From assembly GCF_002854065.1 (NCBI RefSeq), contig NZ_CP024148.1: a DNA stretch of 62,585 nucleotides. One strand, given 5' to 3'. This DNA is from Escherichia coli. GTDB lineage: Bacteria > Pseudomonadota > Gammaproteobacteria > Enterobacterales > Enterobacteriaceae. Positions 1 through 3,000 of this stretch are shown here, in pieces; within the stretch, counting starts at the first letter, position 1; every line of letters starts with the position of its first letter. The position numbers were made by a program.

Positions 1-3000
1 TCAGGCAGCTAAACTAGTGGGGTGGCGAAGCTGTCAGGGCCAGTTCAAGCTGACGTAGATCTCTGGCTACCAGTTGCTCTAATCTTTCTTTAGTGCACCA
101 GTACGCTTCGTCCGGCGGCATACGCTTCAGAATAAACCGCGCAATTTCGTTTCGCTGTTCATCATACGGCAGTTTTGCCAGGCGATTAGCACGTTTGCGC
201 TCCGCTGCTTTCTTACGTCGGGACTTGATGGCATCGAGAGAACGCTGCGCATACCAGCGTTTACGAGCCGAGTGAACAGAGATTTCTTCGCCCTCGCGGA
301 TAACGCCTTCTTTAATCAATTGCAGACGGATTTCACTTTCTGCAAGGCGTTTACGTTGCTGTTCCTGAAGTTTCACCAGATCAACTCCCAGCATTTTCCA
401 GCCAGTTTCGGTGATCCAGACGTATTTCGGCAGTCGCTGGCGGGATTCACGGTCCCATATCGTCTTTTCTGACGTTCCCAACGTGCCAAAGGAAACCTGC
501 TCTGCCAGCAGACGGGAAAGGCGCGATACTGTGACTGCGGTTTCAGGAATCACGTCTCCCTTACTGTCTTTTGGGCTTATTTCTTCTGCCAGGCGGGAGA
601 CAGACATGCCGACAGTGTGCAATCCACGATCACAAAAACTCACAAGTACAACCCATATTGCGTCAAGCAGCCGCTGTTTCTCCGGTCGGAATTTATATTT
701 GCGACCGACACTCTGACGTTTCAGTACATAAAATGGATGCAACGACATGTGCATTCTGAGTGTGTTCTGACCAGTAACCGGGTCTTTTTTAACGAGACGA
801 TTGTAAGCGTGGCCCAACTGTCCGCCCAGCGCCTTATAGTTGTCGGGACGGAACCAGGCTGGATTCTCACACTTTGGCTTAGTGGAATGTTCACCCCGGC
901 GACGTTTTGTTGTTCCGCCTTTGTTTTCCTGGGGGACCAGGAATGAGCTTTCAATACCCGCTTCGTAGTCCTGCCAGAAACGGACCTGCTCTTCCGGTGA
1001 TAGTTCAGACCAGTGACGTTTGCTAATCACAGCAAGCTGCACTTAGCTTGCACTGTAAGAGTTGATATTTCCTTCTCATGGAATTAAACTCCACTTCAGG
1101 TAGTAAGCGATTACCTGAAATAAAATGTTATCAGCTCAAGGCTCTGCCTTGAGGTCAACCCCCGCTAATCTGCGCTCCCTGGAAAAGACGAGATTACGGG
1201 GGTTTTCTTTATCTGAAATTTACGTTCTCGAACAAAATTTCAGCACCTCGTTTTCTGCATTTACAAATCGCGGAAAACTTGCCTGCAAATTTAGCAGCAT
1301 GGGCGCAATCGATCAACGATGTTCAAGCCTGGCTCGTTTCCTTTTTGATTCAGCACACATCTGTGACTGCTTCAAAATCGTTTTCAGAACAGCTACTGAA
1401 GCCCCTTCTTTACTGACGTTCCCCATACAAAACCTTACAAAATCAGAAATTCAGAATTTTGTATATTCAAAAAAGTTTTTTTGACTGCATACACCCATTC
1501 ACACGATCGAATAAACCACACAAACAGTATTATCTAGATTTTTAGATCGTACATCATTTAACAAATAGAATATTATTCTATTTTTTAGGTGTTATCCAGA
1601 TCATTAGATCGCTCTCGTGGCATTGACAGGTTTTAAATGTCGCACACACAATACTATCCAGATGATTGTAAAAAGCTCGTTCATCGCGTTTTTTGTGCTC
1701 ATTGCCTGGAAAATGAGCACTCTTTGACGCCCGTTAGAACGCTTGTCATCTCATGCTCTTTAACAACCCCGGACAGCGGTCATTGCCTAAAGCCCTGGCA
1801 TAAGGAGGTTATTATTCGTGCATTTCAAGCACCGCTGGCATCTGTCAGCAACGGGCTACGTAACAGAGTGACGTGCCGCGCCATCTACACAGGTAACGAC
1901 TCTTTATCCGCAAATATCATTCTGCATACTTAAACCCCCTTATTTGGTGAACTCGCGTTGAGTTAATCTCACTCACTCTCTCCCTGAGCAAGTCGTACAG
2001 GCTGCAACGCAGAAGTACACCAGATTTGCCAGTCTCCACTCCAGGTAAGGGGGTTTAGCTATGCATGATGATGAACAATCAGATAAAGAGCCTGTAGTGA
2101 GTGGCTGCAACTTTTCATAATTAGCTTATGACGCTGTATTCCGGGGATGTTTCTATTTCAGACAAACAACCGGGAGAAAATATGGCGCGTAAGTTAAAAA
2201 TTAATCCTGTCATTCCTGAATGTGTGGCAGATTTGAAAGGATATCCACTCTATATCATCGTGGCCTATTGGGGATTAAGAAATAATAAAACGCTCACAAC
2301 AACGGATGTTAGCCGTAATTTCCTTATTACACAGCAACAATCTTATGATGTGCTTACCTACATTTACCAGGAAGCACAGAAGCAGATAACAGCAACTAAA
2401 CGAACACTATTTAACGAGCACAAAAGAAGAATTAGCGCGTTCAGGATTCTTGATATTGACAAAGGCATATTGCGCACACCCAAAAAAGAGATTGCATATG
2501 CCAGCTACGACAATATACCAACTGTCACAATGAAAAGTACCCGTTGTGAGATCCAGGATAGTTTTACAGAACTGCGCCGCTGGATGTGTTCAAGAAAGAC
2601 AGGTGATCGAGTGGAGGTATTTTTGAATGCCTAAGTACCAAATAAACGCAACCATCAAAAAACCAGGTGGTGGCCCCGTGAAATGGACTCATTACAGCGA
2701 CTTCCCTATGACCGCTGAAGAATGCAGAAAAAACTTCTCAAAAGAAAAAGAAGCAGGAAAGTGTTTTTCTGTTGATGTTCATATTTCAGATTTCATTTGC
2801 AAAGAGATACCTCCACAAAATGCAGGAAATACATATGGCTGATTTTGGTTCCACTAAACAAACCGTAACATTTGAAGAATGGCACGAGCTATTAATGGAT
2901 TACGCAGAGTTACGCGGTGGAAATGCCGCCGATGCGGAAGCATGGCGCGGTGATTATGAAGCAGGAAAAACTCCGGTTGAAGCATATTGTGATGAATGGG

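Follow-up and report, generated by a model that had tools for sequence, protein, structure and literature searches.

The window, by which we mean the whole 62,585-nucleotide stretch of Escherichia coli DNA analyzed here, is an IncI2 plasmid with repA on its minus strand, and the features around the start of repA are collected in Table 1 together with pcnR. RepA matches the NCBIfam family NF040977 (RepA_IncFII_LM, 310 bits) and shares 73–75% of its amino acids with I-complex RepA/RepZ and 68% with an IncFII-like RepA. From 960 to 1340 the window is 100% identical over 381 bp to pHNSHP45 (NZ_KP347127, 198–578), in which Yang et al. (Nucleic Acids Res 2021; PMC8053102) described the control of repA by RepR, an antisense (AS) RNA and PcnR. 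We regard it as very probable that the region is the copy-number control module of an IncI2 resistance plasmid and that it gates translation of RepA; the module is real and not new, the pHNSHP45 copy of the same sequence having been dissected experimentally in 2021, and the functions of RepR, AS RNA and PcnR given below are transferred from those experiments by sequence identity. The control region is kept in 516 plasmid records and in 298 complete E. coli genomes. The gene mcr-1 is carried chiefly by IncI2 plasmids, whose copy number, set by this module, determines colistin-resistance dosage and fitness cost according to published biology; what we add serves annotation more than discovery.

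Table 1. Features of the repA control region and pcnR, in window coordinates.
Feature	Position	Strand	Details and basis
repA, replication initiator	14..1042	-	ORF; annotated start GTG 1042
repR leader ORF, 18 codons plus stop	1023..1079	-	MRRKYQLLQCKLSAACCD; ATG 1079, TAG 1025-1023
Hairpin GCAAGCU/AGCUUGC within repR	1032..1051	-	-11.4 kcal/mol; directly upstream of GUG 1030; GUG 1042 in the loop
PcnR-binding weak stem-loop around repR Shine-Dalgarno and AUG	1053..1099	-	-8.3 kcal/mol; identical to the 47-nt EMSA oligo used in PMC8053102
AS RNA promoter	1062..1090	+	-35 TTGATA 1062-1067, 17-nt spacer, -10 TAAACT 1085-1090; sigma-70-like; promoter scan
repR Shine-Dalgarno GGAG	1088..1091	-	8 nt upstream of AUG; sequence; drawn as SD in Fig. 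5A of PMC8053102
AS RNA, ~108 nt	1098..1207	+	Full complement of the repA leader; three hairpins; 3' end predicted
AS RNA hairpins	5' 1098-1116; middle 1135-1153; terminator 1157-1204	+	Each z ~ -3
Terminator hairpin and U-tract of AS RNA	1159..1210	+	Minus-strand copy is the target stem-loop
Apical loop			CCUGGAAAA in AS RNA, UUUUCCAGG in mRNA
repA/repR mRNA start	~1283	-	Presumed equivalent of published -253 (PMC8053102)
repA/repR mRNA promoter	1283..1316	-	-35 TTGATC 1316-1311, -10 TAAATT 1293-1288; sequence
pcnR, ProQ/FinO-family RNA-binding repressor of repR/repA translation	60093..60689	-	Pfam PF04352, E = 4.4e-17; NCBIfam ProQ/FinO matches

The first-pass annotation placed an 18-aa leader ORF over the repA start and took its translation to be needed for repA, and both points are borne out. 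The ORF spans the two in-frame GTG candidates for repA, 1042 and 1030, and on the identical sequence in pHNSHP45 the repR T23A mutation, which puts a stop codon in the leader, severely reduces repA-lacZ (PMC8053102); the T at repR +23 lies in codon 8, TTA, and T23A creates TAA exactly there. The same paper describes RepR as a 19-aa peptide; by sequence, the ORF has 18 codons and a stop. In the plasmid (PLSDB) gene tables examined, repR is unannotated.

Judged from the sequence, the true, translationally coupled start of repA is probably GTG 1030-1028, giving a protein of 338 aa, and not the annotated GTG 1042, so that the repA annotation is likely four codons too long. The GUG-N2-stop geometry is GUGAUUAG here, as against GUGACUGA in an IncFII-like plasmid and GUGACUAG in Serratia, and the homologous starts agree. 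The numbering of PMC8053102 (−68, −253) was placed on the window indirectly and fits only if +1 is 1030. The published pHNSHP45 experiments fall exactly on predicted features, namely the −35 hexamer at 1062–1067, repR codon 8, and the 47-nt oligonucleotide at 1099–1053. By analogy with the coupling of IncFII and I-complex plasmids, the small hairpin within repR probably occludes the repA start until it is opened by a ribosome translating repR. The repA mRNA would begin at about 1283 and carry a 200-nt structured leader, then the 18-codon repR, then repA (the minus-strand segment 1283–1020 folds with z = −5.4). Because repA has no Shine-Dalgarno sequence of its own, and 2 nt separate its GUG (most likely 1030) from the repR stop that follows, only ribosomes that had translated repR would make RepA, through coupled termination and reinitiation.

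On the opposite strand, a hairpin followed by a U-tract (1159–1207) had been proposed to end an antisense RNA. The stem is formed by CCCCCGCTAATCT (1159–1171) and AGATTACGGGGG (1191–1202), followed by TTTTCTTT (1203–1210), and on the plus strand it folds at −21.0 kcal/mol (z = −3.0, with 2 of 200 shuffles as good). A simple terminator scan found no terminator at the hairpin, which does not count against one: a loop of more than 8 nt and a bulged stem put the hairpin outside what the scan accepts. An antisense transcript, the detection of which had been suggested as a check, was found by 5'RACE on the identical pHNSHP45 sequence, with its start at −68 (PMC8053102); given +1 at 1030, that start would be 1098, and the 3' end is predicted to lie at the terminator. 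The proposal thus stands as regards the terminator hairpin and needs amending as regards the extent of the RNA, which is longer than the hairpin alone (about 108 nt, three hairpins); the segment 1098–1210 folds on the plus strand into three hairpins at −39.8 kcal/mol (z = −3.5, with none of 200 shuffles as good). The AS promoter is placed correctly to start this RNA, and the published CA-to-TT promoter knockout (repR +16/+17) maps to 1064/1063, inside the −35 hexamer. In pHNSHP45, that knockout de-represses repA, and AS RNA supplied in trans complements it (PMC8053102).

Two other accounts of this strand were weighed. The plus-strand transcript could instead be the mRNA of a 119-aa ORF (1125–1484), the hairpin being incidental or an attenuator of that gene, and several IncI2 records in RefSeq do carry a CDS at this place ('hypothetical protein' in pHNSHP45). 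However, the annotated start varies by record (359 vs 333 nt), the product matches no Pfam family, and the hairpin and U-tract lie inside the ORF, across codons 12–29, so that the terminated 108-nt RNA cannot encode it. The ORF moreover runs antisense to a leader whose function is proven, and the AS RNA acts as RNA when it complements in trans (PMC8053102). We therefore give this account almost no credence and take the 'hypothetical protein' annotated over the antisense RNA to be spurious. The hairpin might alternatively matter only as a structure of the repA mRNA leader, as a stability element or a protein-binding site, with antisense transcription as noise. The hairpin does fold more stably in the mRNA orientation (−23.5 kcal/mol), but the U-tract follows the hairpin on the plus strand only, a promoter is suitably spaced from it, and PcnR acts elsewhere and does not bind the AS RNA (PMC8053102). 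The 5'RACE detection and the promoter knockout speak against this account, and the trans-complementation contradicts it, making it extremely improbable.

With an antisense RNA as the preferred reading, control would run as follows. A constitutive RNA of about 108 nt, initiated at about 1098 and ended by the intrinsic terminator, would lower repR translation and, in consequence, RepA synthesis by pairing with the mRNA leader immediately ahead of the repR ribosome-binding site; as the concentration of this RNA would track plasmid copy number, the result would be negative feedback. By analogy with CopA-CopT, the duplex may block repR by steric occlusion, by RNase III cleavage, or by both, and the first contact would presumably be between loops. 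The duplex stops 6 nt short of the repR Shine-Dalgarno sequence. A structural switch, in which AS RNA binding forces an inhibitory hairpin, was considered and found unsupported: in constrained folding under a thermodynamic model the probability that the Shine-Dalgarno sequence is unpaired is 0.03 with and 0.02 without AS RNA, and because it is equally sequestered in both states no switch is evident.

The first-pass annotation did not extend to PcnR, a third regulator. In pHNSHP45, EMSA and genetics showed PcnR to be a repressor that binds the hairpin enclosing the repR start, and it did not bind the AS RNA (PMC8053102). In the present plasmid, PcnR, whose gene lies 2.5 kb off on the other side of the numbering origin, would repress independently of the AS RNA through the weak hairpin at the repR start.

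The loop had also been described as lacking the rUUGGCG motif, in keeping with a divergent IncI2-type element, and this is correct: TTGGCG and CGCCAA are absent from both strands in 1000–1300. The hairpin is nevertheless the positional and sequence homologue of stem-loop I of I-complex RNAI and of stem-loop II of IncFII CopT, with a loop that has lost UUGGCG. A covariance model built from eight non-IncI2 hairpins finds its best match in the window at 1212–1154 on the minus strand (21.1 bits, E ~ 0.004), the automatically derived consensus structure of the model being poor; within the hairpin family, covariation is seen at 6 of 11 stem pairs. UUGGCG is present in 7 of 8 aligned relatives' hairpins, IncL/M having UUUGGCC, and the relatives share the layout of a hairpin followed by a leader ORF whose stop overlaps a GUG start. 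A sequence-only profile (nhmmer) of the relatives' leaders gave no significant match in the window (E = 0.15).

The Rfam scan envisaged in the first-pass annotation was negative. At the gathering threshold the whole window matches only sok, and no family recognizes the control element; CopA (RF00042) reaches 17.1 bits (E = 3.7; 1138–1210, plus strand) against a threshold of 60, compared with 49.5–87.8 bits for IncFII-like relatives. The element is thus missed by every Rfam family. The sub-threshold CopA match sits at the right place and on the right strand. Along with rdlD (25 bits), Pseudomon-1 and ffh, the CopA match was rejected as a family assignment (900–1700, E ≤ 10), all of them being below threshold on a generic terminator hairpin.

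Control could alternatively be of the I-complex type known from ColIb-P9 repZ and pMU720 repBA, with the antisense RNA acting mainly to prevent the target loop from forming an activator pseudoknot with a site immediately ahead of the repA start. The position of the hairpin, equivalent to stem-loop I, would fit, as would the kinship of RepA, which is closest to I-complex RepZ, and the requirement for a leader peptide (PMC8053102). However, the loop UUGGCG and the distal CGCC are both missing, the homologous position reading CAAGCUAAG instead of CGCCAUAAG, and Rfam PK-repZ and PK-repBA (RF01087, RF01089), which score 81–194 bits in relatives, have no match here up to E = 10. The best duplex between the loop and the downstream sequence reaches −14.8 kcal/mol, against −11.6 ± 2.5 kcal/mol for shuffles, 11% of which are as good; in the same search the I-complex sequence used as a control recovers its known 7-bp pairing and reaches 3%. 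Yang et al. likewise could find no such pseudoknot (PMC8053102). Control of the I-complex type is very improbable here. A possible UUUCC/GGAAA pairing of the target loop with the PcnR hairpin was dropped, since 5 bp is a length expected by chance.

Among nine IncI2 variants, variable columns are concentrated in the AS/target segment (19 of 110, vs 6 of 191 elsewhere; p = 4e-5), the repR ORF, AS promoter and PcnR hairpin are invariant, and positions 1187 and 1177 covary perfectly, from C:G to G:C. The two AS RNA loops show lineage-specific differences within IncI2. IncI2 has been said to have 'no detectable RNAI homolog' (PMC10286972). One might speculate that this is a detection artifact and that the AS RNA is a true 'loop-swapped' descendant of RNAI/CopA, in which the UUGGCG U-turn was replaced by an antisense-side YUNR (CUGG) and the pseudoknot activator was lost, with PcnR compensating; we hold this account in full to be rather unlikely. 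If it were true, lineage differences in the two loops could define incompatibility subtypes of IncI2, with consequences for whether mcr-1 and ESBL IncI2 plasmids reside together or displace one another. The 298 records in 298 genomes never include two control-region variants in one genome, and thus lend compatibility subtypes no support.

Compared with known systems, the present plasmid is closest to pHNSHP45: the repR ORF, AS promoter, AS RNA, terminator hairpin and PcnR-binding hairpin are identical, pcnR is on the same plasmid, and with no difference within the control region the plasmid is another IncI2 carrier of the same replicon. The I-complex (IncI1/B/O/K/Z; Inc RNA or RNAI, RepY and RepZ) provides the nearest RepA relative (73–75% aa) and has in common with the present plasmid leader-peptide coupling and a homologous hairpin with a conserved GAAAACCCCC...ATCT / AGAT...GGGGG stem. 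The present plasmid differs in having neither the UUGGCG loop nor its CGCC partner nor an Rfam match, in its shorter leader (18 vs 29 aa), and in its longer AS RNA (about 108 vs about 70 nt).

The likeness to IncFII (R1/R100) extends to an antisense terminator hairpin that is the complement of the target stem-loop, a leader stop overlapping the repA GUG in GUG-N2-stop geometry, the lack of a pseudoknot, and the RepA family NF040977; the DNA of repR and tap can also be aligned at their 3' ends (..AAGTGCAG...TGTGAYTRR). Unlike IncFII, IncI2 has no UUGGCG in its loop, an AS RNA with three hairpins rather than two, and a RepR of 18 aa that lies outside the Tap family (no match to NCBIfam TIGR03475, which gives 68 bits for a control Tap), its resemblance to Tap being confined to an N-terminal M-x-R-K-x-Q and a C-terminal C-D-stop. 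There is also no CopB repressor gene in the IncI2 plasmid: tblastn of two CopB proteins and the IncL/M RepC against the window returned only noise (E ≥ 0.19, with no match near repA), and the FinO/ProQ protein PcnR is used instead. The IncI2 AS RNA behaves like IncFII CopA/Tap rather than like an I-complex Inc RNA with its pseudoknot.

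The feature is real, and the repA control element has already been characterised by direct experiment on an identical sequence: window positions 960-1340 share 100% identity with pHNSHP45 (NZ_KP347127), in which Yang et al. (Nucleic Acids Res 2021, PMC8053102) studied exactly this control region. Because repA lies on the minus strand, its upstream control region extends towards higher coordinates, and the "opposite-strand hairpin" of the first-pass annotation lies on the plus strand. That annotation had proposed a leader ORF overlapping the repA start and an antisense-type hairpin with a U-tract whose loop lacks rUUGGCG, and each element was found (see table): the leader ORF, with GGAG 8 nt upstream of its ATG, spans both in-frame repA start candidates (GTG 1042 and GTG 1030), the hairpin has a folding energy of -21 kcal/mol (z = -3.0), and a sequence search of 1000-1300 found TTGGCG on neither strand. 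The fold of RNA 1098-1210 has three hairpins (-39.8 kcal/mol, z = -3.5; 0 shuffles equally good), and the repA mRNA leader fold has z = -5.4. The proposed control by antisense RNA and leader peptide is correct, as shown by the published experiments (PMC8053102): a stop codon at +23 of the leader ORF, named repR, severely reduces repA-lacZ; a ~108-nt antisense RNA was seen by 5'RACE, with a rho-independent terminator predicted; changing CA to TT in its -35 box de-repressed repA, repression being restored by the antisense RNA in trans; and the ProQ/FinO protein PcnR represses independently by binding a stem-loop of 47 nt that surrounds the start of repR.

Features of the repA control region and related loci
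Feature	Position	Strand	Detail
repA ORF	14..1042	minus	
repR leader ORF	ATG 1079 to TAG 1025-1023	minus	18 codons (MRRKYQLLQCKLSAACCD); from sequence
Sigma-70-like promoter	1062-1090	plus	TTGATA-17-TAAACT; promoter scan
Terminator hairpin	1159-1202	plus	CCCCCGCTAATCT (1159-1171) paired with AGATTACGGGGG (1191-1202), then TTTTCTTT
pcnR, ProQ/FinO-domain protein	60093-60689	minus	198 aa; Pfam ProQ/FinO E = 4.4e-17
Short-leader region, Serratia fonticola pSF002 (position in its own sequence)	560-760		
Short-leader region, Enterobacter hormaechei (position in its own sequence)	540-680		

All landmarks of that study can be located in the window: T23 falls at the middle base of repR codon 8 (TTA), the CA at repR +16/+17 is 1064/1063, within the TTGATA hexamer, and the 47-nt EMSA oligo matches exactly at 1099-1053. 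From the published coordinates (antisense start -68, mRNA start -253, T7 template -173 to -68) we infer self-consistency with the promoters only if +1 is GTG 1030, the antisense start then being A1098, 8 nt beyond the -10 box, and the mRNA start ~1283, downstream of TTGATC-17-TAAATT. One minor mismatch is that the leader is described as "19-amino acid" but has 18 residues plus a stop. Sequence comparison likewise singles out GTG 1030. It overlaps the stop codon of repR (GUGAUUAG) and is homologous to the coupled start of IncFII-like (GUGACUGA) and Serratia (GUGACUAG) relatives; given this GUG-N2-stop geometry and the fit with the published numbering, the RefSeq/PGAP start at GTG 1042 probably extends repA by four codons too many (1028-1042, minus).

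The product of 60093-60689 corresponds to PcnR, which represses repR/repA in trans, and in the listed part of pHNSHP45 no PGAP product name includes ProQ/FinO. Adjoining pcnR is an Rfam sok antitoxin RNA match (RF01794, 98 bits; 60998-61169, minus), i.e., a hok/sok-type post-segregational killing locus. The antisense RNA and repA leader are also overlapped by a 119-aa plus-strand ORF (1125-1484), listed with differing starts as a "hypothetical protein" for pHNSHP45 and further IncI2 plasmids in RefSeq. This ORF contains the antisense terminator, matches no Pfam family, and is probably an annotation artefact. Three TATC(T/C)AGAT(N3-4)TAGATCG-like motif copies at exact 62-nt spacing (1527-1667, plus) and a 14-nt AT-rich palindrome (1559-1587) occur in AT-rich DNA upstream of the repA promoter and may be protein-binding sites. 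A CaiF/GrlA-family regulator (2128-2634, plus; Pfam E = 5e-10) corresponds to ORF00039 of pHNSHP45, deletion of which had little fitness effect (PMC8053102).

The first 1.7 kb of the window matches 548 plasmid records, nearly all conjugative IncI2 plasmids from Escherichia, Salmonella, Klebsiella, and Shigella, R721 (NC_002525, 97%) among them. Across nine representative IncI2 control regions (93-100% identical), the repR ORF, antisense promoter, and PcnR hairpin are invariant, and variable columns are concentrated in the antisense RNA segment (19/110 vs 6/191 outside; Fisher p = 4e-5): in the 5' hairpin loop (AUCGCUUAC vs UGCUUGU in mRNA sense), the middle hairpin loop and flanking bases, a 6-nt indel, and the terminator hairpin apex. 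Positions 1187/1177 change from C:G to G:C in perfect correlation, which supports a closing pair around the invariant 9-nt loop (UUUUCCAGG in mRNA, CCUGGAAAA in antisense RNA). Such variation is typical of antisense-controlled replicons and could point to incompatibility subtypes within IncI2; however, among 298 complete E. coli genomes with this region, none has two copies, which lends subtypes no support.

RepA matches NCBIfam RepA_IncFII_LM (310 bits). Its tblastn identity falls from 73-75% with I-complex RepZ/RepA through 64-68% with Klebsiella/Citrobacter IncFII-type RepA, ~60% with an Enterobacter replicon, and 46% with a Serratia plasmid to 42% with IncL/M. When upstream regions of these relatives were fetched and compared with the window, all those examined, apart from one IncFII plasmid whose annotated start is displaced, had the same layout: a GAAAACCCC(C)...ATCT / AGAT...GGGG(G) stem hairpin, followed by a short leader ORF with its stop overlapping a GUG start. 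The loop carries UUGGCG in every relative except IncL/M (UUUGGCC), UUUUCCAGG being found in IncI2 only. RNAalifold recovered the stem from 11 hairpins, with compensatory changes in 6/11 pairs. A sequence-only profile of the relatives fails on the window (E = 0.15), whereas a covariance model built from eight non-IncI2 hairpins alone has its best match in the whole 62.6 kb at 1212-1154 minus (21.1 bits, E ~0.004), which argues that the IncI2 hairpin is homologous to theirs. The second-best match (61718-61749, minus; 15.3 bits, E = 0.11), a GC-rich hairpin beside an A-run (AAAAAAGAAAGCCCCCC...GGGGG), is probably no more than a terminator close to hok/sok.

As to how the antisense RNA acts, its target stops 6 nt short of the repR SD, on the upstream side, and constrained folding predicts a paired SD whether or not antisense RNA is present. 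We thus favour steric or RNase III-type inhibition, in which duplex formation would lower repR translation as for CopA-CopT.

Three Rfam families cover this replicon superfamily: PK-repZ (I-complex relative, 194 bits), PK-repBA (IncL/M, Enterobacter, and Serratia relatives, 81-118 bits), and CopA (IncFII-like relatives, 50-88 bits). None reaches threshold in the window (CopA, 17.1 bits, E = 3.7; PK-repZ and PK-repBA, no match in the control region up to E = 10) or in R721. RepR has no match to the Tap family (control Tap, 68 bits), and the window holds no CopB/RepC homologue. As the CGCC partner for the pseudoknot, I-complex, Enterobacter, and Serratia replicons have CGCCAUAAG; this is replaced by CAAGCUAAG in IncI2, where a search for loop/downstream-leader duplexes did no better than shuffles, the I-complex control recovering its known pairing; Yang et al. 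likewise found no pseudoknot in pHNSHP45 (PMC8053102). Short leaders also occur in distant relatives (RepA identity 46-60%), with 17 aa in Enterobacter hormaechei and 18 aa in Serratia fonticola pSF002, whose leader (MQFRKQYPKTAISVGGCD) resembles RepR; both also have a complete PK-repBA pseudoknot signature, so a short leader is older than the IncI2 pseudoknot loss. The IncI2 element falls outside the formal criteria, by sequence and covariance, for CopA, Tap, PK-repZ, and PK-repBA. It shares with CopA/Tap leader-peptide coupling and the absence of a pseudoknot, and we therefore conclude that it works like CopA/Tap.
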